Source: a virus (Duplodnaviria; Heunggongvirae; Uroviricota; Caudoviricetes). Taken from it: 18,724 nt of DNA. Position 1 is the first letter of the stretch, and each line of letters begins with the position of its first letter. The translations under genes and the position numbers were made by a program. The DNA is taken from IMG/VR virus record IMGVR_UViG_2734482772_000011, positions 1 through 18,724 of that record. The stretch is one strand, 5' to 3'. A model generated the notes under the pieces. It was not told the origin of the DNA. It searched no databases and saw nothing but the letters and a program-made list of their open reading frames with translations. Shown one piece after another: positions 1 through 16,921 of the stretch.

Positions 1-351
1 TCACTTTAGCCGTTCACGGGCCGTCTTCGCCTTATGGCACGGCCAGCACAGGCTCTGCAGATTGCTGTCGGCATCTGTGCCGCCATGCGCTTTAGGAATG
101 ATGTGGTCAACGGTTTTCGCCTCACGCACCACACCGGCACGCAGACATAACTGACACAGGCCTTTGTCACGCTTGAGCACACGTTCACGGATAACATCCC
201 ATTTCGAACCATAACCGCGCTGGTGCCGGGACTGGCCTGGCTTGTATTGCTTCCAGCCTTCGCTTTTGTGGCTTTCACAATAGCCTGACGGATCTGTGGT
301 GGTATGGCGGCAACCGCGAACACGGCAGGCTTTTGGGATTCGTGGCGGCAT
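1..351 (-). CDS. HNH endonuclease (terminase-associated type)
   Basis: Track ORF 116 aa; Cys-rich N-terminus (CRVRGC...CESH) and HNH motif (DHIIPKAHGG...LCWPCH); stop TGA at 3-1; sits after the lysis cassette where HK97-like phages carry an HNH before cos/terminase. Confidence 0.8.
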   Translation of the reverse strand: MPPRIPKACRVRGCRHTTTDPSGYCESHKSEGWKQYKPGQSRHQRGYGSKWDVIRERVLKRDKGLCQLCLRAGVVREAKTVDHIIPKAHGGTDADSNLQSLCWPCHKAKTARERLK

Positions 352-762
352 ATGTACTAATCTCCGATTTATCCAAATTTCACTGCCATAATGCCGACAT
401 TCTCTGCCATTATTGGCTCCGTTTATCCGTTAAAAGGGATATCAGTTAAGTTATCCCGTGCAGGGTATAAGCCATTGTCGAGACCACTCATTGAATGGCC
501 TCTGCAATAACCGATGTCTTTCCATCAGTCCGCCACCACAAAGAATCTTTTTTGCCATAAGGCTGGAGGTTCATCTTTCAGTGGCTGCCAGTGTTATTTC
601 CCCACTTACTGGCTTGGGTTGTTTCGTGGTACTGCCGCAACTGGTGGTGCACAGACTTAGTTAAATCTGTTCTCGCCTGAACTATCTTTTACATACCCGG
701 ATTGTGGGGATGTAAATCACGGTTTCATTATCAAGCCCACCCGTAGATGGGCTTTGGAATGG

Positions 763-1281
763 TCACTTTGGCAGTCCGGGGATCGATATTTGCGCCTGCT
801 GCTCAAGCCTTTCGATTCTTGCTATGAGTTGAGGTTTTTTGATCCTGCCCCAGCGGTTCAGCAAGCGTCCTGACATACTGGCAACATCCTTTTCCTTCAT
901 GAACTCCAGCATTAACTCGTTGTGCTCTCTTTGGTATGAGTGAGCCATCTCCATCAGCCTGTCACGCATCCAATTAAATGCTTTGATAAACGCCTCTTTG
1001 ATGGCGGCAGCTTTTTTGCCGGTAAACGACATGATGATGTACATCGCACCGTCTTTGGAAATTTCATATTCAACATACTGATTACCCTTGTGTTCATAGG
1101 TAACCCGCGAAAAGTTGCTGGTTAGAAATTCATCCGAACAGTCTAGCTTTTCGATTTTCTGAATGATGTGGTGATGCTGCTTGTCGAAGTAAGCTGCTAC
1201 CTTGCGGGAGGTTGTGATCACGCGATCACCAGAAACAACCACCATGTCCCGGAAATCGAGATTAGCCAATTGATGATTCAT
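763..1281 (-). CDS. Rha-family phage regulatory protein (antirepressor-like)
   Basis: Track ORF; Rha-like N-terminal segment VVVSGDRVITTSRKVAAYFDKQHHHIIQKI; ATG at 1281-1279 preferred over the track GTG start at 1317. Confidence 0.65.
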   Translation of the reverse strand: MNHQLANLDFRDMVVVSGDRVITTSRKVAAYFDKQHHHIIQKIEKLDCSDEFLTSNFSRVTYEHKGNQYVEYEISKDGAMYIIMSFTGKKAAAIKEAFIKAFNWMRDRLMEMAHSYQREHNELMLEFMKEKDVASMSGRLLNRWGRIKKPQLIARIERLEQQAQISIPGLPK

Positions 1282-1430
1282 AGCGTCTTTACCTTTTAGA
1301 AAGTGAGCCTGTCTCACAGAAAAGCCGTCCCGAGATGGTCGCCACCATATACGGCAGTTCTCAGGCTCAACTTTCTGAAAGGCTCGGGTGATGTAATATG
1401 CGCGTGAGATGCGCTGTGAAATTCAGATGT

Positions 1431-1453
1431 AAAAAAGCCCCGCATCGCGAGGC
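1431..1453 (-). terminator. intrinsic terminator downstream of Rz
   Basis: On - strand: GCCUCGC-GAU-GCGGGGC hairpin (7 bp, one G-U pair) followed by UUUUUU. Confidence 0.55.
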
Positions 1454-1485
1454 TCATTAAATGGACTTTGTGATTTGCAAAAAAA

Positions 1486-1923
1486 TTATTTCAGGCACTG
1501 AGTCCTGATGTATTCCTGCAGGTAGTTAACCTGCGCGGTTATCCTATCGATTCCACTTCTGAGACGGTAATAATTGAGTTCAGCATCTGCTGTAAGTCTT
1601 GGGCTTTCTCCATCGCCCATGCTGCTGGCTCCGGTCGTTGGCTTTGCACAGGTGGCGGCGACTTGCAGGCGCTTACGACCAGCAGAAACATCAGCACGGA
1701 GGCTTTCGATAGTCGCGTTAGCATCAGCAAGCTCCTTTGTGTATCTGGCGTCGAGTTCTGCTACATCACGTTGACGCTTCTGCATATCAGCGATAATGGA
1801 TGTGGCTTTATCGCGCTGTTCTTTGTAGGCGATTGCATTATCACGGTAATGATTAACAGCCCATGACAGGCAGACGATGATGCAGATAATCAGAGCGGAG
1901 ATAATCGCGGTGACTCTGCTCAT
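1486..1923 (-). CDS. Rz: Rz i-spanin
   Basis: Track ORF 145 aa, near-identical N-terminus to lambda Rz ([30 protein letters not shown]) by recall; follows R with 4-bp overlap. Confidence 0.9.
1539..1730 (-). CDS. Rz1: Rz1 o-spanin lipoprotein, embedded in Rz in the +1 frame
   Basis: Track ORF inside Rz; signal peptide with lipobox (LLVVSAC), proline-rich stretch KSPPPVQ...AAWAM like lambda Rz1; exact start uncertain. Confidence 0.7.
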
Positions 1924-2396
1924 ACCTCAATCTCTCTGACCGTTCCGCCTGCTTCTTTGAATTTTGCAATCAGGCTGTCAGCCTTATGCTCGAACTGACC
2001 GTAACCAGCCCCCGGCAGTGAAGCCCAGATATTGCTGCAACGGTCGATTGCCTGACGGATATCACCGCGATCAATCATCGGTAAAGCGCTACGTTCCTTA
2101 ATCTGTTGCAGTGCCACAGCGTCCTGGCTTTTCGGAGAGAAGTCTTTCAGGCCAAGCTGCTTACGATAGGCATCCCACCAACGGGAAAGAAGCTGGTAAC
2201 GTCCGGCTGCTGTTGATTTGAGTTTGGGGTTTAGCGTGACAAGTTTGCGAGGGTGATCGGAGTAATCAGTGAATAGCTCTCCGCCAACAATGACGTCATA
2301 ACCATGATTTCTGGTTTTCTGACGTCCGTTATCAGTCCCCTCTGACCACGCCAGCATATCGAGGAACGCCTTACGTTGATTATTGATTTCCACCAT
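1920..2396 (-). CDS. R: endolysin R (lytic transglycosylase)
   Basis: Track ORF 158 aa, [42 protein letters not shown]... matches lambda R almost residue for residue by recall. Confidence 0.95.
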
Positions 2397-2703
2397 CTTC
2401 TACTCCGGCTTTTTTAGCAGCGAAGCGTTTGATAAGCGAACCAATCGAGTCAGTGCCGATGTAGCCGATGAACACGCTCGTTATATAAGCGAGATTACTA
2501 CTTAGTCCGGCGAAGTCGAGAAGGTCACGAATGAACCAGGCGATAATGGCGCACATCGTTGCGTCGATTACTGTTTTTGTAAACGCACCGCCATTATATC
2601 TGCCGCGAAGGTACGCCATTGCAAACGCAAGGATTGCCCCGATGCCTTGTTCCTTTGCCGCGAGAATGGCGGCTAACAGGTCATGTTTTTCTGGCATCTT
2701 CAT
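2380..2703 (-). CDS. S: holin S (S107/S105 dual-start type)
   Basis: Track ORF 107 aa, [35 protein letters not shown]... matches lambda S by recall, including the Met-Lys-Met dual start. Confidence 0.95.
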
Positions 2704-2820
2704 GTCTTACCCCCAATAAGGGGATTTGCTCTATTTAATTAGTAATAAGGTCGATTACTGATAGAACAAATCCAGGCTACTGTGTTTAGTAATCAGATTT
2801 GTTCGTGACCGATATGCACG

Positions 2821-2858
2821 GGCAAAACGGCAGGAGGTTGTTAGCGCGACCTCCTGCC
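2821..2858 (-). terminator. strong hairpin between tRNA-Thr and S (tR-prime-like terminator or processing structure)
   Basis: Perfect 10-bp stem GGCAGGAGGT/ACCTCCTGCC with 10-nt loop at 2829-2858; on - strand followed by GUUUUGCC (short U tract). Confidence 0.4.
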
Positions 2859-2945
2859 ACCCGCTTTCACGAAGATCATGTGTAGAAGGCCGCAGCGTAA
2901 CTATCACTGATGAATTCAGGATAGCCAGTGGCTACGGCTCAGTTA

Positions 2946-3021
2946 TGGTGCTGGTTAACGGACTTGAACCGCTACCCATTCGCTTACAAGGCGACTGCTC
3001 TACCATTGGAGCTAAACCAGC
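2946..3021 (-). tRNA. tRNA-Thr (anticodon UGU), CCA encoded
   Basis: Hand-folded: acceptor GCTGGTT/AACCAGC (7 perfect bp), D-stem GCTC/GAGC, anticodon loop CTTGTAA, T-arm AGCGG-TTCAAGT-CCGTT, discriminator A, 3' CCA; 76 nt. Confidence 0.7.
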
Positions 3022-3026
3022 ATGTT

Positions 3027-3101
3027 TGGCGGGACAGCGTGGGCTCGAACCACGATAAGAAGGTTAACAGCCTTCCGTAATGACCTTTATACGACTGACC
3101 C
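3027..3101 (-). tRNA. tRNA-Asn-like (anticodon GUU), CCA encoded; slightly atypical
   Basis: Hand-folded: T-arm CGTGG-TTCGAGC-CCACG, anticodon stem GAAGG/CCTTC with loop CTGTTAA (same loop as E. coli tRNA-Asn by recall), acceptor GGGTCAG/CTGTCCC with one T:T mismatch, short D-stem; 75 nt. Confidence 0.55.
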
Positions 3102-3192
3102 AAATAAAAAAAGCCACCGTTGCAACTTAAGAGTCACTAACGGCATCTTATGCCAATAGTGTTGCTCATTTGCTCAATGATGTCAACACGTT
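3102..3192 (-). promoter_or_regulatory. late promoter region (pR-prime-like) downstream of Q
   Basis: Consensus -35 hexamer TTGACA on - strand (plus coords 3186-3181) right after the Q stop; no convincing -10 resolved by eye; position matches lambda pR-prime/qut. Confidence 0.3.
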
Positions 3193-3681
3193 CTATGCTA
3201 CATGTTTAATTTTCTCTACACGTTTCCGATTTTTAAACGCACTATCCAGAACCGGGTAAATCATAAACAACGAGGCATTAAGGATTTCGTCAACTTCCCG
3301 TCGACAGGTTGCGAGCGACGGTTTTTGAATGCGCCCGCCGCCACGGCATAACATCTTGCGAGGTCTTGCGACGCGATGATAGTAAGATGCAATGGCGTGC
3401 TTGGAAGAGCCATGAGCGTAGTAGCTGAGGAGGATTCCAAAGGCTTTCTTGTCAATGTACATGACGGAATCGACGACCTGAGAAATCAACATTCCATCAT
3501 CATCATTACACATTGGCCTTGTCATAACTCTTCCCGGCTCTACGCTCTCCATGAACTTCGCTATTACGCTGCTCATGCGCTTTTCCAGACGACCTGAATA
3601 AACCCATGCGCCCCACAGTTCAAGCCAGCCATTCAGCCACTCATGCTGTTCTTTGGTGAGGTTTAGTTCTCTTATGCCCAC
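3193..3681 (-). CDS. Q: late-gene antiterminator Q
   Basis: Track ORF 162 aa; Q-family hallmarks (LELWGAWV near N-terminus, Cys/Asp-rich central segment, SYYAHG); located between nin region and S. Confidence 0.8.
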
Positions 3682-4343
3682 GCGCCTTCTCCCTGTACCT
3701 GAATCAATGTGAGATTTCCGCAGAACACTGCCCCAGTATCGATATACATCTGGTTGGCAAATTTGAGTGGTTTCACTGCTGGCGTATGACCAAAGATAAA
3801 CGTGTCCGCGCCTTTAATTTCTTTAACGATCCCGTCTTGTGAGTTGCTGATTCGTTCGCGGTTCCAGATTACCTGCTGATGATCAACTGGCTTTCCAAAT
3901 TCGTATTCGTCACAAGGATAATCGGCGTGGCAGATGACATATTTTTTACCTTTGCTCACCAGTTCGATGATTAACGGAAGTTCTTCTGCTTTATGGGCAA
4001 GAGCTTTAGCCAGAATTTCTTTGTCGTAATCGAGATTAAAGAACCAGACACCGCCATTAAGCAGCCAGTGATTGACGTTTCCACGCTCTGATAAGCCATC
4101 AATCATCATGTGCTCATGGTTTCCACGTACAGCTCTGAACCAGGGGAATGTGATTAATTCCAGGCATTCAACGTTCTCTGCACCACGATCAACCAAATCG
4201 CCCACCGAGATAAGCAGGTCTTTTTTGTTGTCGAATCCAATCGTATCCAGTTTGTTCATCAGGTTCGTGTAGCATCCGTGCAGATCGCCAACTACCCAAA
4301 TATTTCGGTATTTGCTGCCATCAATTCTTTCGTAGATATTCAT
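3672..4343 (-). CDS. ninI: Ser/Thr protein phosphatase (lambda NinI/Orf221 type)
   Basis: Track ORF 223 aa; metallophosphatase motifs GDLHG, GDLVDRG, GNHE; position after ninG as in lambda. Confidence 0.9.
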
Positions 4344-4951
4344 GCAGCCTCACTTCTGCTGTTTCGCAGTTTTTTAAGTTTCTGTTGATACTCCGCCTTG
4401 ATGGCCCTGCACTCTTCGACAGTCCAGCGATGGCGGTTATGGTTTGATTCGATTTCGTCTACTGCTTCCTGCCCGATGCGGTTAATCAGTTCGACGCGAT
4501 ACGGAACGAGATTTCCGCTTTTATGTTGGTTGCACACCACGCATTGCTTGTGAATATTGCGTTCATCAAATCGGAGTTGAGGCGCCGCAGCAGTTGTCCG
4601 GTAATGCCCGGCATCCCACTGAGCAGACGTGAGCGTTCCGCACGAGATACATGGTAAGTCGCGGTCTCTTTCTCTGATGAAGGCGTTTACGGCTTGTTGG
4701 GCTTGTTTAATCCAGTAACTGCGGGGCTTTAAGGCGAGTTTTCGAATCTTAAGTTTATCTTTCTGTTTCTGCTCCTCTCGTCGTCGTTTCTTCTCTGCTG
4801 CCTTTTCCGCTTTTTCGCGTTCTTTGCTTCGTCGTTCGAGTGCTATCTTGGTTCCACACTCTGGAGAGCACCACCACTGATTGGCGAATGCAGGGTGAAA
4901 CCATTCCCGACATTCATCGTTTTTACATCGTCTTCGCGCTGGTTTAGCCAT
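4340..4951 (-). CDS. ninG: NinG (Rap) recombination protein
   Basis: Track ORF 203 aa; Cys-rich N-terminus ([12 protein letters not shown]...WWCSPECG) and lysine/glutamate-rich stretch typical of lambda NinG by recall. Confidence 0.9.
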
Positions 4952-5004
4952 CGTCTTCTTCCTCGTGCATCGAGCTATTCGGATCGCTCATCAGTTCTGC
5001 ACAG

Positions 5005-5511
5005 TTATGGTCTGCCATGGTTTTCATGAAAACCCAGTTCTTTTTCTGCCCTCTTCCTTTCTGCAATAGCGTCAATGATGCTAGCAAATATTCCAAGATA
5101 TTTGGTGCGCCCATCTACGCATATATTCGCAATCCACTTGCATCTCTCTTTATTGAAATACACTCCAGTCACTCCTGACGAATTGGTTATTTTTCTCTTT
5201 TGGTTCTGTGCATTCTGTTGGTGTGTAACCAATCGAAGATTAGATAGCCTATTATCTGACCTTACTCCATTTATATGATCAATTTTATACCCTAATGGAA
5301 TCTCACCATTATTTATCATCCATATAACGTGGTGAGCATAAGTAATTACACCATCGATAGTTAACATCCTATAACCATCACTCCTAATGTAACCAGCAAC
5401 ACTGCCAACCTTAACATTATTAGAAGGAGACACTTTCCATCTAAGTACACCTAAAACATCATCATATGATAATTTATTTCTTAATTCGTCTATGTTGCTT
5501 ATATTTCTCAT
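5005..5511 (-). CDS. HNH homing endonuclease with AP2-like DNA-binding domain
   Basis: Track ORF 168 aa; HNH_3-like segment (YKIDHINGVRSDNRLSNLRLVTHQQN) followed by AP2-like segment (SGVTGVYFNKERCKWIANICVDGRTKYLGIF); AT-rich by eye relative to flanking nin genes. Confidence 0.8.
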   Translation of the reverse strand: MRNISNIDELRNKLSYDDVLGVLRWKVSPSNNVKVGSVAGYIRSDGYRMLTIDGVITYAHHVIWMINNGEIPLGYKIDHINGVRSDNRLSNLRLVTHQQNAQNQKRKITNSSGVTGVYFNKERCKWIANICVDGRTKYLGIFASIIDAIAERKRAEKELGFHENHGRP

Positions 5512-5653
5512 TATGTTCCACCATATTTAAGCATTCATATATACAACGCTCACACACATGAACTTCCAGCACATGCAGCTTCTGACCGCAGTTAGCGCAC
5601 GTTAAAGCTCGCTCGACACTTCCTTGTTCGTAACTTCGATTTTGGTCAATCAC
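5474..5653 (-). CDS. ninF: NinF-like ORF with altered C-terminus (remnant at the junction with the HNH insert)
   Basis: Hand-translated, not in track: GTG at 5653-5651 overlaps ninE stop (GTGA); reads [59 protein letters not shown]; core [24 protein letters not shown] matches lambda NinF by recall; 3' end overlaps the HNH start by 38 nt. Confidence 0.45.
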
Positions 5654-5832
5654 CTTGTTTTCCTCGCACGTTCTCTAAGCCACCGGATATCCCACAGGTG
5701 AGCCGTGTAGTTGAAGGTTTTTACGTCAGATTCTTTTGGGATTGGCTTGCGTTTATTTCTGGAGCGTTTCGTTGGAAGGTATTTGCAGTTTTCGCAGATT
5801 ATGTCGGTGATACTTCGTCGCTGTCTCGCCAC
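5650..5832 (-). CDS. ninE: NinE
   Basis: Track ORF 60 aa, [23 protein letters not shown]... matches lambda NinE by recall. Confidence 0.9.
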
Positions 5833-5972
5833 ACGTCCTCCTTTTCCTGCGGTAGTGGTAACACCCCTGTTGGTGTTCTTTCACATCGGAGACACCATCG
5901 ATTCCAGTAAGGTTGATTTGGTCGGAAGCGGTTATCTTCTTTGCATTCACCGCACCGATAACATCGCATCAT
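5799..5972 (-). CDS. ninD: NinD (small Cys-rich protein)
   Basis: Within track ORF 5799..6032; start taken at [11 protein letters not shown] (ATG 5972-5970) which overlaps ninB stop as ATGA; Cys-x2-Cys pairs. Confidence 0.7.
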
Positions 5973-6409
5973 GCTGCCCGATCTCCCCATCTCGCTTTCC
6001 ACTCCAGAGCCAGTCGCGCTTCGTCTGACCACTTAACGCCACGCTCTGTACCGAATGCCTGTATAAGCTCTAATAGCTCCGCAAATTCGCTTACACGCAT
6101 CCTGCTGGTTGACTGGCCTATTACCACAAAGCCATTCCCGGCAAGGTTAGGAACAACGTCCTGCTGCTTTAATGCTGCGGTAAACACACACTTCCAGCTT
6201 TCTGCATCCAGCCAGCGACCATGCCATTCAACCTGACGAGAGACGTCACCAAGGCAAGCCCAAAGCTTTCGGTTTTGGTCTAAGCTGCGGTTGCGTTCCT
6301 GAATGGTTACTACGATTGGTTTGGTTGGGTCTGGAAGAATTTGCTGTACTGCGTGAATAGCGTTTTGCTGATGTGCTGGAGATCGAATTTCAAAGGTTAG
6401 TTTTTTCAT
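5969..6409 (-). CDS. ninB: NinB (Orf-family recombination mediator)
   Basis: Track ORF; start taken at [21 protein letters not shown] (ATG 6409-6407) with SD GAGGGA 5 nt upstream; matches lambda NinB by recall. Confidence 0.9.
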
Positions 6410-6422
6410 GACTTCCCTCTCC

Positions 6423-6457
6423 CCCAAATAAAAAGGCCTGCGATTACCAGCAGGCCT
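6423..6457 (-). terminator. intrinsic terminator between helicase and ninB (tR2 analog)
   Basis: 8-bp perfect stem AGGCCTGC/GCAGGCCT at 6434-6457, followed on the - strand by UUUUUAUUU. Confidence 0.6.
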
Positions 6458-6485
6458 GTTATTAGCTCAGTGATGTAGATGGTCA

Positions 6486-7922
6486 TCAGAATCCTCCTTT
6501 CTTCTTGGACTGCGGTTCCTCGCGTTCACGTCGGCGCATTTCAGCAGACTGTTGGTCTGTGTCATAAATAGCGCCATTTGCCTGAATGCAATACACCGTG
6601 CCGGTATTGCCATGACGATTGAGACGAAGGATTAGTTCAGTTTCACCAGGTGGAACACTGTCATCAAAAGCGCCTTCACGATGGATCCCGACCCAATAAT
6701 CGCAATCCTGTTCAATCTGCCCTGTATCTCGTGAGTCACTTGGTAATGGGCGTTTATTGGTTCTGCTTTCCAGTGCGCGGTTAAGCTGCGTCAGAAGCAC
6801 AACAACGCAATCAAGCTCTTTGGCAAGGTTCTTCAGTCCTTTGGTGATCATGCCGTAAGCAAGGTCGTTGCGATCGGCCTTCTCAGCGGTCATTAGTGTC
6901 AGGTAATCGACCAGAATCATGCCAACACATCCTTTTTCTCGCTTGATTCGACGGCTTTCGCTGACGATTTGAGCCAGAGATAATCCCGGCGTGTCGTCGA
7001 TGTAAAGCAGGTCTATTTCACTCAAGCGATTGGCTGTTTCTATCGCCCTGTTGAAGTCACCATCGTAATCACCCTGATAGCCGTCATCGGCGTCATTTGT
7101 CGCCGGAAGGTAAAAAATATTCGGGTTAACACCAGACTTCTGCCCTACCAGTTTTTCCAGTATCTGATCACCTGGCATTTCAAGGCTGAACATCAATGCG
7201 GGCTTTTTCTCATGCACTGCGCAATTGATTGCCATCTGGCTGTATAGCGTCGTTTTCCCCATCTTAGGGCGAGCGCCAATGACAAACAGAGAGCCTTTCA
7301 CCAGACCTTTCGGTGACAGCATCCTGTCCAGCGATGGGATCCCTGTGCTCATTCCCCGTTGTTCGCCTGACGGGTCAAATCGCTTCTCAAGGTCGCTAAC
7401 CCAGTCTTCCATGACCTCACCAAATGAGCGAAGGCCGCGACGCGATCCGGTTTTTGCATGGTCTGTCAGTTGCGTGAAAATCGACTGAATAGCTTCGTAC
7501 TTCTGCGTTGCAGTCATTCCGTTGCGGGAATAGAGCAATTCCGTCGCTTCAGTCATGCGGTTGATGGCGTAGCGTTCCATTGCGGTTTCGCGAACCTGCA
7601 TTGCATAAGCAACGATGTTTGCTGCGCTTGGCGTGTTCTTTGCGATCTCAGCGATATAAGCAAAACCGCCAACAGACGCCGTTAACGATTTACGCTCCAG
7701 TTCATCGAAAAGCGTCAGGCCATCTACTGGCTTTTGCTCACGGTGCATTCTGGTTATTTCTTCGAAAATGATTTTGTGTGGCCGGCTGTAAAATGAATCA
7801 GGCTTCAGCATCGCCAGAACCTTCTGGACGCGCTCACTGCTGTCATCATCCAGAAGCAATCCACCAATCACCGCCTGCTCTGCCTCGATGCTATGGGGCG
7901 GCGCATAAAAATTATCGGTCAT
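6486..7922 (-). CDS. replicative DNA helicase (DnaB family, P22 gene 12 type)
   Basis: Track ORF; Walker A GARPKMGKT, DnaB-like N-terminal segment SIEAEQAVIGGLLLD; ATG at 7922-7920 with SD GAGGGTG preferred over track GTG at 7937. Confidence 0.9.
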   Translation of the reverse strand: MTDNFYAPPHSIEAEQAVIGGLLLDDDSSERVQKVLAMLKPDSFYSRPHKIIFEEITRMHREQKPVDGLTLFDELERKSLTASVGGFAYIAEIAKNTPSAANIVAYAMQVRETAMERYAINRMTEATELLYSRNGMTATQKYEAIQSIFTQLTDHAKTGSRRGLRSFGEVMEDWVSDLEKRFDPSGEQRGMSTGIPSLDRMLSPKGLVKGSLFVIGARPKMGKTTLYSQMAINCAVHEKKPALMFSLEMPGDQILEKLVGQKSGVNPNIFYLPATNDADDGYQGDYDGDFNRAIETANRLSEIDLLYIDDTPGLSLAQIVSESRRIKREKGCVGMILVDYLTLMTAEKADRNDLAYGMITKGLKNLAKELDCVVVLLTQLNRALESRTNKRPLPSDSRDTGQIEQDCDYWVGIHREGAFDDSVPPGETELILRLNRHGNTGTVYCIQANGAIYDTDQQSAEMRRREREEPQSKKKGGF

Positions 7923-8811
7923 CGTGTTCACCCTCACGAACTTTCAGGTAGGTATTATCGTTAAGCAGGAAATCAAATCCCTTTTTGTGCCAGACAGTTC
8001 CGCGTTGATGGTTTGGACGCTCTTCGAACATCCATCGGCAATTTTCGCCTACGTAGCTCAAATAATTTCTCCAGTCCTGCATCGTGAACCCATGCCCGTC
8101 AAGCTGGCGGGTTATCACTCCGGCTTTGCGCCAGAACGTTCGGATCTGGTTTTTACGCTTGTCATTCAGTGCGCGGATTCTTGGAGCTTCAGGAAGGATT
8201 TCGTGGTAAGCATCGACAACATCCTGACAGCTGACGGAAGGTTTTTTCTTGTCAGACTTTTTGTCTGCTGTGGCACTCTCTAATACGTCAGTATTAGAGA
8301 TAATATTATTATATTCTTTATCTGTGGTAATTTGCTGGTAATCTGCTGGTACAGCATTGCTTACAGGCATTGGTATTGCTGGCTTTGAGGTGGTAATTTG
8401 CTGGTAATCTGCTGGTACAAAATTTGACTGATAATCGTCATATTTCTCTACTGAGAAAACTGAGAATTTACCGTGTGAAACCCAGTCAATCATGCCGAGT
8501 TTTTTGAACTTTCTAAGCAGGTACTGAACGCGATCTGGTTTGAGTCCTGTTTCAAACGCCAGAGAGTTTCTACCGCCAAGTAGCTTCCCTCTGCCTACCA
8601 GAATTTCTCCTGCGTCAGTCATTACATACTCAGGCGTATGCTTTGCTTTGAGGATTAAGTGAACCCACAGATGCGCTGCTTCTGCATCCTTGTAAAACGG
8701 CACATCCATAATTTTACGGTGCAGCAAGGCATACCCCTTACCGCTGCTTTGATGCGGTTGTTGTAGCCTTCTGGCCTCTCTGGCTTCGGCTAGATTAGAT
8801 ATGTTACTCAT
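7912..8811 (-). CDS. replication initiation protein (O-like)
   Basis: Track ORF 299 aa directly upstream of the helicase, downstream of cII; contains tandem peptide repeat [10 protein letters not shown] encoded by the iteron array, as in lambda O. Confidence 0.75.
8324..8419. repeat. origin-like iteron array inside the O-like gene, flanked by an AT-rich tract (8281-8320)
   Basis: Exact 30-bp direct repeat GTGGTAATTTGCTGGTAATCTGCTGGTACA at 8324-8353 and 8390-8419; each holds two TGCTGGTA sub-repeats 11 bp apart. Confidence 0.6.
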
Positions 8812-8950
8812 GACCTTTCTCCTTCTGCATCAGCTTCACTTTTTCCAACTCAGCCCGGAATCGACCAGGCTGCTTGAAGCTGGACAGGAAGCGATCACGT
8901 AGTATGTGTTTGTGAATTTTGTCCTGGTAAGGACTGAGTTGTTTTGTCAT
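8804..8950 (-). CDS. small hypothetical protein (48 aa) between cII and O
   Basis: Hand-translated, not in track: [48 protein letters not shown]; SD AGGAG 5 nt upstream of ATG 8950-8948; stop overlaps O start. Confidence 0.4.
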
Positions 8951-8982
8951 AATTACTCCTGTGGATTGATCCAGTAATTCCC

Positions 8983-9279
8983 TCAGAATTGCATATCAAT
9001 TTGCTTAGAGTCCCCGGCGGCCACCGGGGATTTTTTCTTTGTGATTCCATCAAGCGCATACTTAAAAGCCCTACTAATCGGACTGATGTCTGATGCCATT
9101 CCGAAAGCACACAAGACTGAAGCAATAAATCTCCAGTCCGTTCTGCTTATCTTCGATTCATGACAGCCAATCATCTTTGCCAGACCGCGCTGAGTAAGCG
9201 TTGACAGGTTGATAAGTAAATCTGTTTCTGCGCGATCAACGTCGCGCTGTGATAGTTTGCTGTAACTTGTTCGTTCCAT
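8983..9279 (-). CDS. cII: CII-like transcriptional activator
   Basis: Track ORF 98 aa; HTH region and C-terminus [18 protein letters not shown] resembling lambda CII (KKRPAATERSEQIQMEF) by recall; position between cro and O. Confidence 0.75.
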
Positions 9280-9364
9280 TTCTTAAGATTTCCAATAGTG
9301 AATAGCTAGTTGAAAGGTATGCGTGGAAACGCATATGGCCTTAGTTGGTCAAATATCTTGGAAC

Positions 9365-9410
9365 TCGCTTTTCAGCGACGTAGGACGAATGTCCGTTGTT
9401 ACAAAGAGCG
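9365..9410 (-). promoter_or_regulatory. nutR (boxA + boxB)
   Basis: On - strand: boxA CGCUCUUUGUAACAA (9410-9396), then boxB hairpin UCGCU-GAAA-AGCGA (9378-9365); same architecture as the nutL candidate. Confidence 0.55.
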
Positions 9411-9420
9411 GCTCCGCTTA

Positions 9421-9636
9421 TTAAGCGGCTTTGTGTTCCGGCGGGAACACGTCATCAAGACTTACTTTTGCGCCTAACTTATTTAGGCACGCAACAAGAG
9501 CACGGCATGTTTTAAGGTCTGGGAAGCGACGACCAGATTCCCAATGTCCGATAGCTCCCTGTGTGCATCCAACTGCCTTAGCAAGTGTTGTTTGAGAGAT
9601 ATTCAGTGACTCTCGATATTTTCGTAGGTTGCTCAT
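9421..9636 (-). CDS. cro: Cro-like repressor (HTH_XRE)
   Basis: Track ORF; start at MSNLRKYRESL (ATG 9636-9634) with SD GGAGG 5 nt upstream; HTH ISQTTLAKAVGCTQGAIGHWESG; divergent from cI. Confidence 0.75.
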   Translation of the reverse strand: MSNLRKYRESLNISQTTLAKAVGCTQGAIGHWESGRRFPDLKTCRALVACLNKLGAKVSLDDVFPPEHKAA

Positions 9637-9752
9637 ATGCCCTCCATAGTAACCTCGAATAAAAAATACAATATGTACTTTCCAAATACAAGCAAAAATA
9701 CACATTGTGCATGGATGGTTCCAGTACAGAGCGTAATAATAAGGACATGAAA
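9637..9752. promoter_or_regulatory. OR region (divergent PR/PRM with operator sites)
   Basis: Intergenic between divergent cro and cI; near-palindromic sites TACAATATGTAC (9667-9678) and TACACATTGTGC (9699-9710); the first recurs near pL. Confidence 0.6.
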
Positions 9753-10406
9753 ATGAAATGGTATGAACTGGCTAGATCCAGAATGAAAGAGCTCGGCATA
9801 ACTCAAGAGAAGTTAGCCGAAGAGCTAGGTATGACGCAGGGTGGGATTGGACACTGGTTGCGCGGATCTCGTCATCCATCTCTTAGTGATATTGGTGTGG
9901 TGTTTAAATACCTTGGTATTGATAACATATCATTCAACCACGACGGGACATTTTCACCTGTTGGCGAATACTCATCGGCCCCAGTTAAAAAACAATATGA
10001 GTACCCTGTATTTTCTCATGTTCAGGCTGGGATGTTCTCTCCAGAACTCAGAACCTTTACCAAAGGCGATGCGGAGAGATTGGTAAGCACAACCAAAAAA
10101 GCCAGTGACTCTGCATTCTGGCTTGAGGTTGAAGGTAACTCAATGACCGCACCAACAGGTTCCAAACCCAGTTTTCCTGACGGGATGTTAATTCTGGTTG
10201 ACCCTGAGCAAGCTGTTGAGCCCGGCGATTTCTGCATAGCCAGACTTGGTGGTGATGAATTTACCTTCAAGAAACTGATCAGGGATAGCGGTCAGGTGTT
10301 TTTACAACCACTAAACCCACAGTACCCAATGATCCCATGCAATGAGAGTTGTTCCGTTGTGGGGAAAGTTATCGCCAGCCAGTGGCCTGAAGAGACGTTT
10401 GGGTGA
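9753..10406 (+). CDS. cI: CI repressor (HTH + LexA/S24-like autopeptidase)
   Basis: Track ORF; start at ATG 9753 (SD AAGGA 7 nt upstream); N-terminal HTH ([20 protein letters not shown]), C-terminal S24 motifs (GNSM ... FKKL). Confidence 0.9.
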
Positions 10407-10472
10407 TATATGTGAAATGCATATATTGATATAAATGCAGCAATATCAAATAGTTAAAAGGTTATATTTTTA

Positions 10473-10853
10473 ATGAATGATCTTGATAAGAAAAAGTACG
10501 ACCAAGTTATTGATTCTGTGAACTTCGCCCTTAGATCGTTGTCAGAGTTATTCGAAGCCCATGGAATGCATGGGATGTATGATCTAACGAATCCAAGCCT
10601 TGATGAGCTAAAATTAGTGTTTACAAGGATGAAAAACGGTGTTGACTCTATTGCTCAAAGCTTTGAGCACATGGTAGAGACAGCAAAGGATATGGATGCC
10701 GCAAGTGCAAGCATAAATGTTATGAACATCAAACAAGGATTGATGTATGCTGAATCACTATTGCTTGCTGTAGAGAAATTAGACTATGATAAATGTGTGG
10801 AAGCAAATACGCAGATAAAAACCCACGATCTTCCACCAACCCAATGGCCTTAA
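10473..10853 (+). CDS. hypothetical protein, AT-rich accessory gene in the rexA position
   Basis: Track ORF 126 aa co-oriented with and downstream of cI; A/T-rich codons by eye; acidic, no obvious TM segment; no family recognised. Confidence 0.6.
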   Translation: MNDLDKKKYDQVIDSVNFALRSLSELFEAHGMHGMYDLTNPSLDELKLVFTRMKNGVDSIAQSFEHMVETAKDMDAASASINVMNIKQGLMYAESLLLAVEKLDYDKCVEANTQIKTHDLPPTQWP

Positions 10854-10921
10854 TAGTAAATCAAGATTTCATATAGTCTATTTGAACTAGGCTAGTACCA
10901 TAAAATAAACCGAGGAAACGC

Positions 10922-11023
10922 AATGAAAACCATGTCTACTCTGCACAAAGATGCAATGACCCTGAGATCTCTCATTAACGAGATTCTGGCTCGCTCGTCA
11001 GCACACACCAAAAAAGCCGCATA
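10922..11023 (+). CDS. small peptide ORF (33 aa)
   Basis: Hand-translated: MKTMSTLHKDAMTLRSLINEILARSSAHTKKAA; SD GAGG 7 nt upstream; followed 11 nt later by an intrinsic terminator. Confidence 0.35.
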
Positions 11024-11034
11024 ATGCCTACATA

Positions 11035-11060
11035 ACCCGGCCTCAGCGCCGGGTTTTCTT
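11035..11060 (+). terminator. intrinsic terminator ending the cI operon (tImm analog)
   Basis: CCCGGC-CTCAGC-GCCGGG hairpin followed by TTTTCTTT. Confidence 0.7.
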
Positions 11061-11245
11061 TGCCTCACCCCCCACCTAAAGACACATAACCAAATGTATT
11101 TATTGAAAAATAAATAGATACAACTCACTAAACCACGCAATTCTGATCTCTCCTTACATCGCCGAGGCGATACACCCACGCTAAAAAACAACACTATTAA
11201 ATACAAAGTGTTATAAAAAATCACCCCATTTTAGAACAAATCGTA

Positions 11246-11274
11246 TTGACCCAATAAAGTACATATCGTACTAT
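11246..11274 (+). promoter_or_regulatory. pL-like promoter with overlapping operator
   Basis: -35 TTGACC (11246-11251), 17-nt spacer, -10 TACTAT (11269-11274); revcomp of 11259-11270 is TACGATATGTAC, 11/12 identical to OR site 9667-9678. Confidence 0.5.
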
Positions 11275-11319
11275 TTAACCGTCAGCAGGACGCTGGAAGC
11301 CAAACGGAACAGACTGGCA

Positions 11320-11366
11320 GGCTCTTTAAACAACGTCGAACTCTCGACTACGTGGCTGAAAAGCCA
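11320..11366 (+). promoter_or_regulatory. nutL (boxA + boxB)
   Basis: boxA GGCTCTTTAAACAA (11320-11333) then boxB hairpin TGGCT-GAAA-AGCCA (11353-11366), about 100 nt upstream of the N start. Confidence 0.6.
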
Positions 11367-11464
11367 GATCACCCAACCACATGAGCTGTGGGATGCAATG
11401 CCGAAGCAACCGTCTCAGGAGGAGCTTCGAGATTGCATCACCAAAGTTTATTCGGGAGGAATCT

Positions 11465-11787
11465 ATGTCCAGAAAAACAGAATTTAAAGGCACCTCAGCT
11501 TCTCGTCGTAGAGCTCGTCGCGCAAACCTGCAAAGTCAGGAGGCGATTAGCTCCGACAAGCTACACAGACCAACCCCCTCTCGAGTGGTCTTGCAATGCA
11601 AGCGCAAACCAGCAATGAGAGCAGAAGTAATAACACTGACAACGTTGACCAGAAAATATGAAGGCTCAACTTGTCTTCCAAATGTAGCTCTTTACGCGGC
11701 AGGCTACAGGAAATCAAAACAACTGACAGCAAGGTGACTTGTGTTGGTCGCCAGAAAATAAAATTAGGCAGCAAACCACTTATTTGA
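11465..11787 (+). pseudogene. N: N-like antiterminator interrupted by an apparent 1-bp deletion (or sequencing error)
   Basis: ATG 11465 (SD GGAGG) opens frame with arginine-rich motif TSASRRRARRANLQ and stops at TGA 11735-11737; the conserved N C-terminus VTCVGRQKIKLGSKPLI is in the -1 frame, ending at 11787; adding one A to the A4 run at 11716-11719 fuses them into a 107-aa protein. Confidence 0.6.
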
Positions 11788-11795
11788 GGTGATAT

Positions 11796-12245
11796 ATGGA
11801 AGAACAAGCAAACAAGATTCTCGTAGAACTATTGCAAAAAGCCAGTAATGGAATAGACGCGGCTGTTTCATTTAGCCAGGCACAGATTCCTGATGTTATC
11901 CATCAGTTGCTGCTATGGAATATGGTTGACAGTCTGATTAAAACATTAATAGCCATTCTAACAATCCCACTGGTTTTCTGGTTTATGAAGAAGCAGTGCC
12001 AAAGAGTTGAGATAGGTAAAATCGGTAATGAAGGATATTCATGGGAGAAGGGAAATCCCAAATACAGGCCGACAATGGTTTGGGATAGCAAAGGTGATAT
12101 TGATCTTCTTATCATGCCATTGGTTGGAGTTTTGACTCTGTGGGGGATTTTTATTATTGGTGCAGTAACCAATATGACTTGGTTAAAAATTTGGCTGGCC
12201 CCAAAGCTTTACCTTATCGAATATGCAGCATCATTGGTTAAGTAA
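11796..12245 (+). CDS. hypothetical two-TM membrane protein (sieB-position accessory gene)
   Basis: Track ORF 149 aa; SD GAGGTG upstream; two hydrophobic segments (LIKTLIAILTIPLVFWFM and LLIMPLVGVLTLWGIFIIGAV); AT-rich by eye; between N and tL1-like terminator. Confidence 0.6.
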   Translation: MEEQANKILVELLQKASNGIDAAVSFSQAQIPDVIHQLLLWNMVDSLIKTLIAILTIPLVFWFMKKQCQRVEIGKIGNEGYSWEKGNPKYRPTMVWDSKGDIDLLIMPLVGVLTLWGIFIIGAVTNMTWLKIWLAPKLYLIEYAASLVK

Positions 12246-12248
12246 TTT

Positions 12249-12274
12249 CAGGCCGCATAGTCGGCCTTTATTTT
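12249..12274 (+). terminator. intrinsic terminator (tL1 analog)
   Basis: AGGCCG-CATAGT-CGGCCT hairpin followed by TTATTTTT. Confidence 0.7.
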
Positions 12275-12394
12275 TGGCATAAACAACAGAATAAACACTG
12301 CACTGTGTATTCATTCCAACGAGTGAATACACGGAGCAATGTCGCTCGTAACTAAACAGGAGCCGACTTGTTCTGATTATTGGAAATCTTCTTT

Positions 12395-12418
12395 GCCCTC
12401 CAGTGTGAGGGCTTTTTT
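12395..12418 (+). terminator. intrinsic terminator (tL2 analog)
   Basis: GCCCTC-CAGTGT-GAGGGC hairpin followed by TTTTTT. Confidence 0.75.
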
Positions 12419-12484
12419 ATATGCATACCAATAACGCTTCACTCGAGGCGTTTTCGTTATGCAATCAAATATAAGGAGTTACCC

Positions 12485-12619
12485 ATGATGCACTTTCAGC
12501 TCGCGGGTAGCGGCGTCATGTCCGCTTTCTACCCGCACGAATCTGAATTATCACGCCGAGTTAAACAATTAATCAGAGCAGCAAAGAAACAACTGGAGGC
12601 GTTATGCGCAATGAAATAG
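12485..12619 (+). CDS. cIII: CIII-like protein (FtsH inhibitor)
   Basis: In-frame part of track ORF 12380..12619 downstream of the terminator; ATG 12485 with SD AAGGAG 6 nt upstream; AGSGVMSAFYPHESELSRRVKQLIRAAKKQL resembles the lambda CIII helix region by recall. Confidence 0.55.
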   Translation: MMHFQLAGSGVMSAFYPHESELSRRVKQLIRAAKKQLEALCAMK

Positions 12620-12756
12620 CCATTAATCACCAGATGCTTCGTGCTGCACAGAACAAAGCAGTAATAGCCCGATTTATTGGTGATTCAAAAATGTGGCTTG
12701 AAGCAAATAAAGCGATGAAATCAGCTATCAACCTTCCGTGGTATCGCAGGAAATGA
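12604..12756 (+). CDS. Kil-like small protein
   Basis: Hand-translated 50 aa: MRNEIAINHQMLRAAQNKAVIARFIGDSKMWLEANKAMKSAINLPWYRRK; start overlaps cIII end; FIGD.KM motif and position recall lambda Kil (low certainty). Confidence 0.4.
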   Translation: MRNEIAINHQMLRAAQNKAVIARFIGDSKMWLEANKAMKSAINLPWYRRK

Positions 12757-12837
12757 GTTTTACAGATAACTGGTCAGACGAAGAATTCATTCGTCAGATG
12801 AAAGAAATGCTCAATCAGCACAAAGAACAGGAGAAAG

Positions 12838-13149
12838 ATGATGATTCTGACTCTGAATGATAAGCGTGAAATATCGCAAATAATCGCAAGTTTTACTGAT
12901 GAAGATTACGAACGAATCAACAGTGAAGTTGATCGCCTCTGCAAACGTTGCGACCCAATAAGCGAAATGCTTCGCTCATATAAACCAGATGAACACACTA
13001 AGGACGCTATCGACTGGCTGGAAGATGATGACTGTAACTATCAGGAAAAAGCCGCTGAATGGTTCTGGGATGCAATAACCGAAAGAGTTAAGGCTGAATA
13101 TGCCTTCGCAATATTCAAACGCAGACACATTTTTGGAGAAGCTGCATGA
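12838..13149 (+). CDS. hypothetical protein upstream of recombinase
   Basis: Track ORF 103 aa, acidic, ends 4 bp into the RecT start; no family recognised. Confidence 0.5.
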   Translation: MMILTLNDKREISQIIASFTDEDYERINSEVDRLCKRCDPISEMLRSYKPDEHTKDAIDWLEDDDCNYQEKAAEWFWDAITERVKAEYAFAIFKRRHIFGEAA

Positions 13150-14057
13150 GCAATATCGTTGAATTCGTTAAACAGCAGGAGCAGTTATTCTGCGGAGCAT
13201 TGACTGAACAGACGGTGACATGGGCTAAGGAAAGCCAGTTTGCAATTCAGTATTTCCAGAAAAACGATTACCTGGCTAAAACAGCACTGGCAAATCCAAC
13301 CAGCGCACAGAACGCCATCATCAATGTTGCGGCGATCGGCATCACCTTAAACCCGGCCAGCAAACTGGCTTATCTGGTTCCGCGCGACGGCATGGTGTGC
13401 CTTGATATCAGTTATATGGGATTGCTCCATATTGCAATGGAGTCTGGTGTTATCTCATGGGGTCAGGCAAAACTTGTTCATGCTAACGATACCTATGAGT
13501 CAAACGGGCTTGATAAAGCACCAACCCATAAATACAACGCCTTCGGTGATCGTGGTGATATCGTTGGCGTTTACTGCACAGTTAAGACGCCAGCAGGTGA
13601 TTATCTAACGGAAGAGATGAGTCTGGCTGAAATTGAGGCTGTAAGGAAAACAAGCAAGGCGGCCTTCAGCGATAAAGGACCATGGGTAAATCACTGGAAT
13701 GAGATGGCGCGAAAGACGGTCGTAAAGCGTGCAAGCAAGTATTGGCCTAAGGCATCACGTCTTGATAGTGCTATTCACGTACTAAACGAAGAAGAAGGTG
13801 TGTGGACTGAACCAGTTATGCCGCACAAATCAGAGGAAGATATCCGCGAAGATGAACGGAAACGCCAGCAGGAAATAACGGATAAAGCACAACTTCTTTG
13901 TGATGAAATGGCTCAGGCAGAAAACATGGATGATTTGAAGCGATATTTTGCAGAAGCATATCGCCTGACATCTGGAATGAAATTGCAGCAGAACGTACAA
14001 GCCATTTACGCAGAATGCAAAGCGAAACTGGAGGTTGCCAGTGAGCAAACTGTATGA
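13146..14057 (+). CDS. recT: RecT-family single-strand annealing recombinase
   Basis: Track ORF 303 aa; segment KGPWVNHWNEMARKTVVKRASKYWP resembles the RecT core (GPWVTHWEEMAKKTAIRR) by recall. Confidence 0.8.
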   Translation: MSNIVEFVKQQEQLFCGALTEQTVTWAKESQFAIQYFQKNDYLAKTALANPTSAQNAIINVAAIGITLNPASKLAYLVPRDGMVCLDISYMGLLHIAMESGVISWGQAKLVHANDTYESNGLDKAPTHKYNAFGDRGDIVGVYCTVKTPAGDYLTEEMSLAEIEAVRKTSKAAFSDKGPWVNHWNEMARKTVVKRASKYWPKASRLDSAIHVLNEEEGVWTEPVMPHKSEEDIREDERKRQQEITDKAQLLCDEMAQAENMDDLKRYFAEAYRLTSGMKLQQNVQAIYAECKAKLEVASEQTV

Positions 14058-14523
14058 AATTGCCAATGAATACGCAAAGCTGATGGATTCAGATTTAGAA
14101 CCAGAGATGATTGCTGACACAATAGAAGGCATGGAAGGAGAATTTACCGATAAAATAGAGCAACTTCTTGCCATTATTAAAAATGAATCTGGTTATGCTG
14201 AATGCCTCAAGGAAGAGGCAAAGTCACTAAATGAACGAGCCGCAGTAATTCAAAATAAGATTGACAACATTATGGCGTATATAGCGTCATCGCTTGAAAT
14301 GGTTGGCAAGAAAAAGATTCGAGCAGGTATTCACCAGGTAACAATCCGCAAACCGTCAGAAACTGTAGAAATCATCGACTCAAGCGCCATTCCTCCTGAA
14401 TACGTTGAGTTTGAAACGACAATTAAAGCCGACAAGTTGGCAATCAAACACCAACTAAAAGCAGGAATAAATATCCCCGGCGCTCAACTCAAAGTTGGGA
14501 AACCTTCACTTCTTATCAAATAA
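14041..14523 (+). CDS. Gp157-family protein (Siphovirus Gp157-like)
   Basis: Track ORF; GTG 14041 with SD GGAGG 6 nt upstream preferred over track TTG 14035; family call from recalled pattern and recombinase adjacency, not verified. Confidence 0.5.
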   Translation: MSKLYEIANEYAKLMDSDLEPEMIADTIEGMEGEFTDKIEQLLAIIKNESGYAECLKEEAKSLNERAAVIQNKIDNIMAYIASSLEMVGKKKIRAGIHQVTIRKPSETVEIIDSSAIPPEYVEFETTIKADKLAIKHQLKAGINIPGAQLKVGKPSLLIK

Positions 14524-14534
14524 CGGTATCGCCT

Positions 14535-14849
14535 ATGAAAAAGACTCCATGGGAGAAATGGGAAGTCGATTTCTTACGCGAAGTAGCGGCGACAATGCCA
14601 GTTGAAGTTATCGCTGAAAAACTGGAAAGGACTGAAAAAGCAGTAATGGCGAAAGCAACAAGGATTGGCGCTGACATTGTTAGCCGACTTCGTGGAAGAC
14701 GATGGACAAGAGCCGAAGTATCACTTTTCGGTAAGTTCTCCGCAGAAGAAATAGCAATTGCAACCTGCCGCTCAATTTATTCAGTAAGAGCTATGCGATA
14801 CAAGCTAAAAAAACTCGATGAAGAAAGAGCAGGCATACGAATAAATTAA
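14535..14849 (+). CDS. hypothetical protein with internal tandem helical repeat
   Basis: Track ORF 104 aa; two ~35-aa repeats each starting with W and acidic residues (WEKWEVDFLREVAATMP... and WTRAEVSLFGKFSAEEIA...). Confidence 0.5.
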   Translation: MKKTPWEKWEVDFLREVAATMPVEVIAEKLERTEKAVMAKATRIGADIVSRLRGRRWTRAEVSLFGKFSAEEIAIATCRSIYSVRAMRYKLKKLDEERAGIRIN

Positions 14850-14865
14850 CATGGAGTAATTAACA

Positions 14866-15147
14866 ATGAAGCTAAACATAGACCTAGGCAAATATGTTAT
14901 TACCGGAACCAAACACGATCTGATTCTTAGCGAAAGAGGAATTCTCAAAGAAGGCGAGAATGCAGGGAAAGAAACACTAAGCCGTATCGGTTATTACAGC
15001 AAGTTTGAGCATCTGGTTAAAGAATTATGCAACCGTGAAATCCTGTTATCTCAGGCGCAGACGCTACAGGATATTCAGCAACATATCGAGACTTTAGGTG
15101 TGTCACTTAGCATGGCTGTTGACCAGTTCGTGGAGAGTAAATCATGA
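14866..15147 (+). CDS. hypothetical protein
   Basis: Track ORF 93 aa in a co-directional operon; no family recognised. Confidence 0.45.
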
Positions 15148-15311
15148 GAGGACTTGCATACAATCCCGGCATTCTTCCGGCAGAAATGATTATTCGTCAA
15201 CGCGTAAAGCCAATGCCATCGAGAGAGGAATTGCTTAAGAGAAAGAGTTTCGGTTCTGTTAATGACAACAAATATCTGAATGCGATGTGGCGTAAAGGAG
15301 GCAACCAGTGA
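15144..15311 (+). CDS. small hypothetical protein (55 aa)
   Basis: Hand-translated: ATG 15144 overlaps upstream stop (ATGA); [55 protein letters not shown]. Confidence 0.4.
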
Positions 15312-16211: not shown

Positions 16212-16212
16212 T

Positions 16213-16910: not shown

Positions 16911-16921
16911 GGAGATGACAA

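Follow-up and report, generated by a model that had tools for sequence, protein, structure and literature searches.

Tandem tRNA genes, one for Asn(GUU) and one for Thr(UGU), lying downstream of the late antiterminator gene Q have been described in the papers on phages SfI, epsilon34 and L (PMC3636060, PMC2629481, bioRxiv 2020.10.05.325894), the first of which reported the same arrangement for Sf6, ST64T, PS3 and p21 and the other two for P22-like phages. Annotations of both tRNAs are also given for phage 21, for Sf6 (where they read 'similar to phage 21'), and for BTP1, SPN9CC, vB_SosS_Oslo and others. Here we analyse such a pair in an 18,724-nucleotide (nt) stretch of DNA from a virus of the Caudoviricetes (IMG/VR record IMGVR_UViG_2734482772_000011, positions 1 to 18,724; hereafter the window, meaning this whole stretch). 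The module is real, ordinary and long annotated; it is already known. We consider it likely that it is an intact tRNA module of the late operon, in which tRNA-Thr is a nuclease-resistant stand-in for its host counterpart and tRNA-Asn probably acts likewise.

Two nucleases that cut host tRNAs bear on this reading. P2 Old kills in P2–lambda interference by cutting the host tRNA-ThrU (UGU) (Govande et al., NAR 2025, PMC12445682); within the anticodon stem it severs the paired CNG motifs, after C28 and after C40, and it cleaves host tRNA-Asn as a slower substrate (PMC12445682). In the same study, tRNA-Thr21 of phage 21 protected from P2-OLD toxicity, in a partial rescue, and was cleavage-resistant in vitro, almost fully so at Site 1, which the authors explained by changes in the CNG motifs (C28U/G42A) and a shorter anticodon stem acting in combination (PMC12445682). 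The Thr(UGU) tRNA of HK446 brings plating of the Old-sensitive phages HK97, HK542 and Bas34 near wild type, and that of T5 gives only partial Old rescue (bioRxiv 10.64898/2026.07.10.737580). The second nuclease, AriB of the PARIS system, has Lys(UUU), Thr(UGU) and Asn(GUU) tRNAs as its main targets and cuts them at 40|41, beside U36AAU39; the T5 variants of tRNA-Lys, tRNA-Thr and tRNA-Asn jointly neutralise PARIS, and the Lys variant is needed for any rescue.

Among the known systems, the window locus is closest to that of phage 21, to which a 171-nt segment is 99.4% identical, and the same segment is 98–99% identical to HK446, HF4s, Bas106 and many Salmonella phages. Phage 21 has the same late promoter, leader and terminator and a Q that is 97% identical; it differs at position 60 of tRNA-Asn, by two small promoter/leader changes, and further downstream, where S, R and Rz of the window are of lambda type. 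Sf6, SfI, ST64T, PS3, BTP1, SPN9CC and vB_SosS_Oslo carry the same tRNAs in the same order and slot, followed by a lambda-like lysis cassette as in the window, but they differ in the Q allele and promoter-proximal sequence and have podovirus or myovirus virion modules. At the level of the single genes, phage 21, Sf6 and HK446 each have a tRNA-Thr 100% identical to that of the window, and the window tRNA-Asn shows a single difference from phage 21 and Sf6, T-to-C at T-loop position 60, for which HK446 has the common T60 form. HK446 differs in that its module lies behind a lambda-type Q/PR'/6S/tR' and in that it also encodes the inhibitor Oad2.

A similar slot, past Q and the late promoter PR' and before stx and the lysis genes, is occupied in Stx phages by ileZ-argN-argO, tRNAs with anticodons for rare Ile and Arg codons that are classically read as a rare-codon supply. 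These tRNA sequences are unrelated to the window pair, the only overlap seen being a 33-nt match. The preliminary description of this DNA, made from its letters alone, had set the pair apart from the Stx set; the pair is no unusual set, but the long-known one of phage 21, Sf6, SfI and ST64T.

Two tRNA genes in the window

ARAGORN called two tRNA genes in the window and no more, and both were also recognized over the full length (1–71) of the Rfam model RF00005, with 61.5 bits for tRNA-Thr (E = 2e-11) and 53.0 bits for tRNA-Asn (E = 4e-9) against a gathering score of 29. The calls agree exactly with the positions and anticodons first proposed (Thr-UGU and Asn-GUU-like at 2946–3101), and the sequence confirms that both genes lie on the minus strand, 5 nt apart and each with an encoded CCA. 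In the order of transcription, the module consists of:

Positions 3027–3101, minus strand: tRNA-Asn(GUU), 75 nt, encoded CCA, discriminator G73 (ARAGORN and Rfam).
Positions 3022–3026, minus strand: intergenic spacer AACAT, 5 nt (direct sequence reading).
Positions 2946–3021, minus strand: tRNA-Thr(UGU), 76 nt, encoded CCA, discriminator A73 (ARAGORN and Rfam).

The spacer in relatives is AACAT or AATAT. A permissive Rfam rescan of 2700–3250 returned the two tRNAs and one chance-level match, with no other credible leader RNA. The 50-amino-acid open reading frame (ORF) at 2928–3080 on the plus strand, antisense to the tRNAs, was judged to be a by-product of the tRNA sequence.

By the rules established for Escherichia coli, asparaginyl-tRNA synthetase (AsnRS) recognizes G34, U35, U36 and the discriminator G73; the identity elements of threonyl-tRNA synthetase (ThrRS) are G1:C72, C2:G71, G35 and U36. 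Reading the two genes, we found all four AsnRS elements in tRNA-Asn and all of the ThrRS elements in tRNA-Thr. The universal nucleotides U8, A14, G18G19, U33, T54-T55-C56 and A58 are present in tRNA-Asn, and tRNA-Thr has the same set except for C14 in place of A14 (window position 3008). A14, the partner of U8, is almost universal in tRNAs and is found in the Thr tRNAs of P1, N4 and the host; among 17 unique variants of the phage Thr gene, three have T14. Despite C14, the sequence-identical Thr tRNA is active in vivo (PMC12445682; bioRxiv 10.64898/2026.07.10.737580), and ACA decoding has been reported for it (PMC12445682). Both genes are genuine, intact phage tRNA genes.

Conservation of the tRNA pair

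To follow both genes across relatives we used a family set of 104 loci, 98 of them real loci from IMG/VR and 6 from species genomes. The search pattern for the family collection and for a scan of species genomes (596 Gb) was the 16-nt D arm of tRNA-Asn. Being too short, the pattern returned only 6 real loci among 120 in the species-genome scan, which gives no reliable host range.

The fold of tRNA-Asn has irregularities that the preliminary description had correctly recorded as an acceptor-stem T:T mismatch and a short D stem. The former is U4:U69; in the latter a U13:U22 mismatch leaves three pairs. The variable loop has four bases, and the minimum-free-energy fold of the single sequence is not a clean cloverleaf. 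These features, and the degenerate copies of the adjoining Thr slot that are known in phage L and JLK-2012, would fit a decaying or non-functional tRNA-like remnant, as had been suggested. We regard this as very improbable. The Rfam score of 53 bits lies far over the gathering score, and the synthetase identity elements and universal nucleotides are in place. The Asn sequence is invariant in 74 of the 104 loci, with the T-loop variant of the window in 6 more, so that it is essentially unchanged in 80 of 104. The U4:U69 mismatch is itself kept in 14 of 15 variants. In a diverged lineage, of the Klebsiella phage Mulock type, both partners were exchanged in three of the stem pairs (6:67 from A-U to G-C, 7:66 from G-C to A-U and 28:42 from A-U to C-G) and U4:U69 and U13:U22 were both retained. 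Asn is also kept where Thr has decayed. The mismatches are thus conserved, with compensatory changes elsewhere in the gene, and the suggestion of a decaying copy finds no support.

The Thr gene likewise shows compensatory double changes, at 3:70, 5:68 and 6:67, and its anticodon-stem features G27·A43 and U28:A42 are unchanged in all 17 unique variants. Over both alignments, 94.7% of the cells in Thr and 90.2% in Asn are paired, compared with 22–52% in slid-partner controls, figures that come from shallow variation and, for Asn, from a D arm that the search itself had prescribed. Of the 104 loci, 91 have a Thr(UGU) gene linked to this type of Asn tRNA. The order Asn(GUU) ... Thr(UGU) recurs in P1 (trnA-trnT), N4 (Asn-Ser-Thr) and Mulock (Asn-Phe-Thr-Arg), of which Mulock belongs to the same sequence family; P1 and N4 differ in having a Thr tRNA only ~78–85% similar and an Asn tRNA of another family, and the P1 module adjoins the C1-controlled ban promoter region and does not lie in a late leader.

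Decayed Thr slots take two forms. In phage L cII-101 (790–861 of the extracted locus) there is a degenerate copy of 72 nt, which bears the annotation tRNA-Leu(UAA) and for which ARAGORN made no call, and the upstream Asn gene is intact; the PS3 and ST-32 records match this pattern. The annotated 'tRNA-Thr' of JLK-2012 (790–865 of the extracted locus) joins a 5' half identical to the phage-21 type to a host-thrU-like 3' half with two broken anticodon-stem pairs, and ARAGORN again made no call; this chimera is followed by a Gly(UCC) gene (869–943) and then by tciA/tciB, which in P1 lie ~0.7 kb downstream of the Asn–Thr pair. An Asn–Gly pattern like that of JLK-2012 was tallied by ARAGORN in 7 of the 104 loci.

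The threonine tRNA and P2 Old

The anticodon stem of the window tRNA-Thr consists of a G27·A43 mismatch followed by U28:A42, C29:G41, G30:C40 and C31:G39. Where the host has CUG/CAG, the window has UCG/CGA, and U28:A42 combined with G27·A43 is the published Old-resistance signature. The window gene is identified with tRNA-Thr21 through the GenBank record of phage 21 and through the paper's account of C28U/G42A and the short stem. The proposal of the preliminary description that the tRNAs counter tRNA-targeting defences finds direct support, for tRNA-Thr, in the published Old resistance and rescue by the identical Thr tRNA of phage 21 and HK446. Resistance to Old has been shown elsewhere for the sequence-identical tRNA; that the gene is kept in the window for this reason is what we infer.

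Mechanistically, Thr(UGU) would replace the host tRNA-ThrU, which is encoded by the single-copy gene thrU and is the sole tRNA dedicated to decoding ACA. With U28:A42 and a stem shortened by G27·A43, the phage tRNA would be cut poorly by Old-family ABC-ATPase/Toprim tRNases, and ACA decoding would thereby continue through late gene expression. In Old assays, overexpressed host tRNA-ThrU had no effect like that of the phage tRNA (PMC12445682; bioRxiv 10.64898/2026.07.10.737580).

Several observations weigh against this reading. The Thr tRNA alone rescued neither lambda nor Old toxicity in recB cells, and the authors of that preprint suggest a lifestyle explanation for the HK446 tRNA rather than an anti-Old one (bioRxiv 10.64898/2026.07.10.737580); the rescue by tRNA-Thr21 in the NAR study was likewise incomplete (PMC12445682). 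The Thr tRNA of P1 keeps paired CNG motifs, so the resistance signature is not universal. Any foreign tRNA would differ in its anticodon stem, and motif differences alone are no proof of selection. Lambda Gam, the classical Old trigger, was not found in the window.

Three further observations concern triggers and inhibitors of Old and are leads only. The window encodes a Mu-Gam-like end-protection protein at 14035–14523 (plus strand), adjacent to RecT. Just after kil, a 35-amino-acid ORF (12753–12860, plus strand) is 86% identical (18/21) over its first 21 residues to HK446 gp33, a newly reported P2 Old trigger (bioRxiv 10.64898/2026.07.10.737580), and differs in the rest. No homologue of the HK446 Old inhibitor Oad2 (gp27) was found in the window.

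The asparagine tRNA and PARIS AriB

The Asn gene departs from its host counterpart at the corresponding places. In host asnT, CNG motifs pair with each other (CGG at 28–30 and CCG at 40–42) and positions 36–41 read UAAUCC, where the window tRNA-Asn has AAG/CUU and UAACCU. At the same AriB site, window tRNA-Thr reads UAAGCG and host tRNA-Thr UAAUCA; the numbering register was checked and reproduces the published U39A/A41C of T5 tRNA-Lys. From these sequences, Asn(GUU) would probably have the same role for host tRNA-Asn, itself a slower Old substrate and a secondary, though biologically relevant, AriB target, as Thr(UGU) for tRNA-ThrU. The linkage of this Asn type to Thr(UGU) and the recurring Asn ... 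Thr order speak for such a role as well. A more specific version, which we put forward only tentatively, is that tRNA-Asn, lacking the paired CNG motifs and U39, would be no passenger but the cleavage-resistant second half of a minimal two-tRNA kit of temperate lambdoid phages, needed for full escape from ABC-ATPase/Toprim tRNases that rival mobile elements encode, for example Old in P2 prophages and PARIS in P4-like satellites. Two comparisons count against a role of this kind: Asn of the Klebsiella (Mulock) type has C28:G42, which restores paired CNG motifs, and P1 Asn keeps UAAUCA. The anticodon stem of any foreign tRNA, here too, would differ from that of the host.

The same comparison raises the question of which nuclease matters most. 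The main selective agent might be a PARIS-type AriB, or an undescribed anticodon-arm nuclease, instead of P2 Old. The pair covers two of the three main AriB targets, both window tRNAs are changed at position 39 (to G in Thr and C in Asn) and at 41, G39 occurs in every phage Thr(UGU) examined, and the recurring combination of Asn with Thr fits the AriB target list better than the Old target lists. T5 Thr and Asn, too, have the same anticodons and carry substitutions at or around 39–41 beside the AriB cut, as in the window, although their sequences are unrelated and they belong to the large tRNA array of a virulent phage that includes the Lys variant. It is here that AriB fits less well, and that the broader anti-nuclease reading also meets a difficulty: by ARAGORN, the module of the window comes without a tRNA-Lys(UUU), the main PARIS target, while the T5 Lys variant was needed for PARIS rescue. 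The module alone should therefore not defeat B185 PARIS. The direct data on this Thr sequence, moreover, concern Old alone. On balance we think it unlikely that AriB or another such nuclease, and not Old, has been the main agent.

Organization of the late operon

The surroundings of the pair suggest how the module would be expressed. On the minus strand, in the order of transcription, they comprise:

Preceding Q, minus strand: a ninG-like gene and then the ninI phosphatase gene (ORF list).
Positions 3193–3681, minus strand: late antiterminator gene Q, phage-21 type (162-amino-acid ORF, 97% identical to phage 21 Q).
Positions 3156–3186, minus strand: late promoter PR', with the -35 element TTGACA at 3181–3186 (homology to the phage 21 'pQ promoter' and Sf6 PR').
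Positions 3102–3151, minus strand: late leader with the qut region and the terminator tR', hairpin at about 3116–3144 and U-run at 3106–3112 (homology).
Positions 2829–2858, minus strand: stable hairpin in the lambda-homologous S leader (-22.5 kcal/mol, z = -3.2).
Positions 2380–2703, minus strand: holin/antiholin gene S, lambda type (107-amino-acid ORF; homologue annotated in Sf6 and lambda).

Sf6, JLK-2012 and other records label the homologous gene Q. Because the -10 element is weak and the terminator stem interrupted, neither PR' nor tR' was picked up by a generic sigma-70 promoter and terminator scan of 2400–3900, and the two were placed by homology with phage 21 and Sf6. Over the 90 nt from Q to Asn the window aligns nearly base for base with annotated features of these phages (in Sf6, PR', the qut site and the terminator), and the leader matches the 50-nt 'aRNA' of phage 21 (AJ237660, 4652–4701) and the 'late mRNA leader terminator' of Sf6. 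It folds at -14.3 kcal/mol (z = -3.2) and is followed by U7. G1 of tRNA-Asn, at 3101, is the first base past this 50-nt leader and tR', and the late protein genes downstream of the tRNAs begin with S, followed by lambda-type R and Rz.

The placement of the tRNAs between Q and S, past the late promoter and before the hairpin at 2829–2858, had been noted before and is borne out; more exactly, they stand directly past tR'. Aligned with the loci of phage 21, Sf6, L and JLK-2012, the window shows Asn(GUU)-Thr(UGU) behind the Q leader terminator and before the holin gene. A terminator-like T-run occurs within 8 nt just upstream of Asn in 93 of the 104 family loci, 70 of them with a phage-21-type tR' and the other 23 mostly with a lambda-type tR' and, in a few cases, another terminator. 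Because the tRNAs follow directly behind tR', their transcription should need Q antitermination. PR' would transcribe them mainly once Q renders RNA polymerase termination-resistant, they would share the late transcript with S, R, Rz and the virion genes, and host tRNA-processing enzymes would excise them with their CCA ends already encoded.

On both sides the segment gives way to lambda homology. Positions 2691–2948 of the window are 96.9% identical to lambda 44942–45198; the homology restarts at 2948, within the tRNA-Thr CCA (lambda 44942), and runs through the hairpin into S, and on the other side it stops at the ninI/Q junction (window 3682; lambda 43885). From these two junctions, the Q21-PR'-tR'-tRNA block stands in for the lambda Q-PR'-6S-orf64 block. 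As judged from the sequence comparison, the Q-PR'-tR'-tRNA block behaves as one exchangeable cassette, and the 2829–2858 hairpin is part of the lambda-type lysis segment and S leader, not of the tRNA module. HK446 has an insertion of just the two tRNAs, directly after the T-run of the lambda tR'.

Elsewhere in the nin region, a 168-amino-acid ORF at 5005–5511 (minus strand) contains a putative HNH-type motif (DHINGVRSDNRLSNLRLVTHQQN) of the kind found in homing endonucleases, recognized by eye. Another HNH-like ORF, also found by eye, lies at 1–351, next to the lysis genes.

Codon supply and integration

The tRNAs might instead supplement scarce host tRNAs for genes rich in ACA and AAC/AAU, with no defence system involved. 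ACA makes up 28–31% of the Thr codons in window genes, roughly twice the E. coli average of ~13–17%, and thrU is present in a single copy. For Asn, by comparison, E. coli has several tRNA genes, which counts against this reading. The SfI paper gave ACA as 17.3% in the phage and 7.1% in the host, although its authors saw no Asn bias, and the phage L paper found AAC in 24 of 25 Asn codons of the capsid gene. A matched comparison is provided by HK446, a carrier of both tRNAs, and HK97, which lacks tRNA genes, since their virion genes are near-identical: in late genes, ACA accounts for 13.4% of Thr codons in HK446 and 16.7% in HK97, and Asn codons number 49 and 50 per 1,000, respectively. Module carriage therefore does not track codon demand, and the earlier proposal that the tRNAs compensate the codon usage of late genes receives little support, as the HK446 late genes show no excess. 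Early genes of the window are, in addition, as ACA-rich as late genes, yet tRNAs behind tR' should be made late, and overexpressed host tRNA-ThrU was no substitute for the phage tRNA in the Old assays, which measured defence and not growth rate. Taken by itself, codon supply seems to us a somewhat unlikely explanation; it is compatible with the anti-nuclease reading and may add a benefit, but the genes can be accounted for without it.

As the preprint suggests for HK446, the tRNAs might make up for a host tRNA gene that prophage integration has disrupted. Many lambdoid phages do integrate into tRNA genes, HK446 at thrW. In the window, the tRNAs lie ~14.5 kb from int (17651–18724), whose product we take, from its start as recognized by eye, to be lambda-like, and lambda is not known to integrate into a tRNA gene. 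HK97, with an att core that its record gives as identical to that of lambda, has no tRNA genes. In phages that use thrW, attP restores the gene, and thrW is Thr(CGU), neither UGU nor Asn; a module behind the late terminator should also be poorly expressed in a lysogen. Compensation for integration is thus extremely improbable here.

Distribution and significance

The module was found in 369 of 5,426 complete E. coli genomes (~7%), and at least 18 records match it at 100% identity. In a search for an identical prophage, the best records cover 50–67% of the window. In many records the pair has gone unlabelled: it is left unannotated in HK446, HF4s and many Salmonella phages, and HK446 (NC_019714.1), reported as a single-tRNA phage, yet carries both genes, called by ARAGORN as Asn(GUU) at 910–984 and Thr(UGU) at 990–1065 of the extracted locus. 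Beyond Escherichia, Salmonella and Shigella, the same Asn tRNA is carried by Phytobacter sp. V69 and by Shimwellia pseudoproteus, as well as by a 3.9-kb contig binned into a Segatella copri metagenome-assembled genome; this contig is probably a mis-binned enterobacterial phage fragment.

For annotation, the result amounts to two real tRNA genes of a routine kind that often go unlabelled. For the biology of these phages, the locus is a case, in the textbook position, of a phage with a nuclease-resistant copy of a host tRNA, and it ties classical P2–lambda interference to a module that about 7% of complete E. coli genomes carry.

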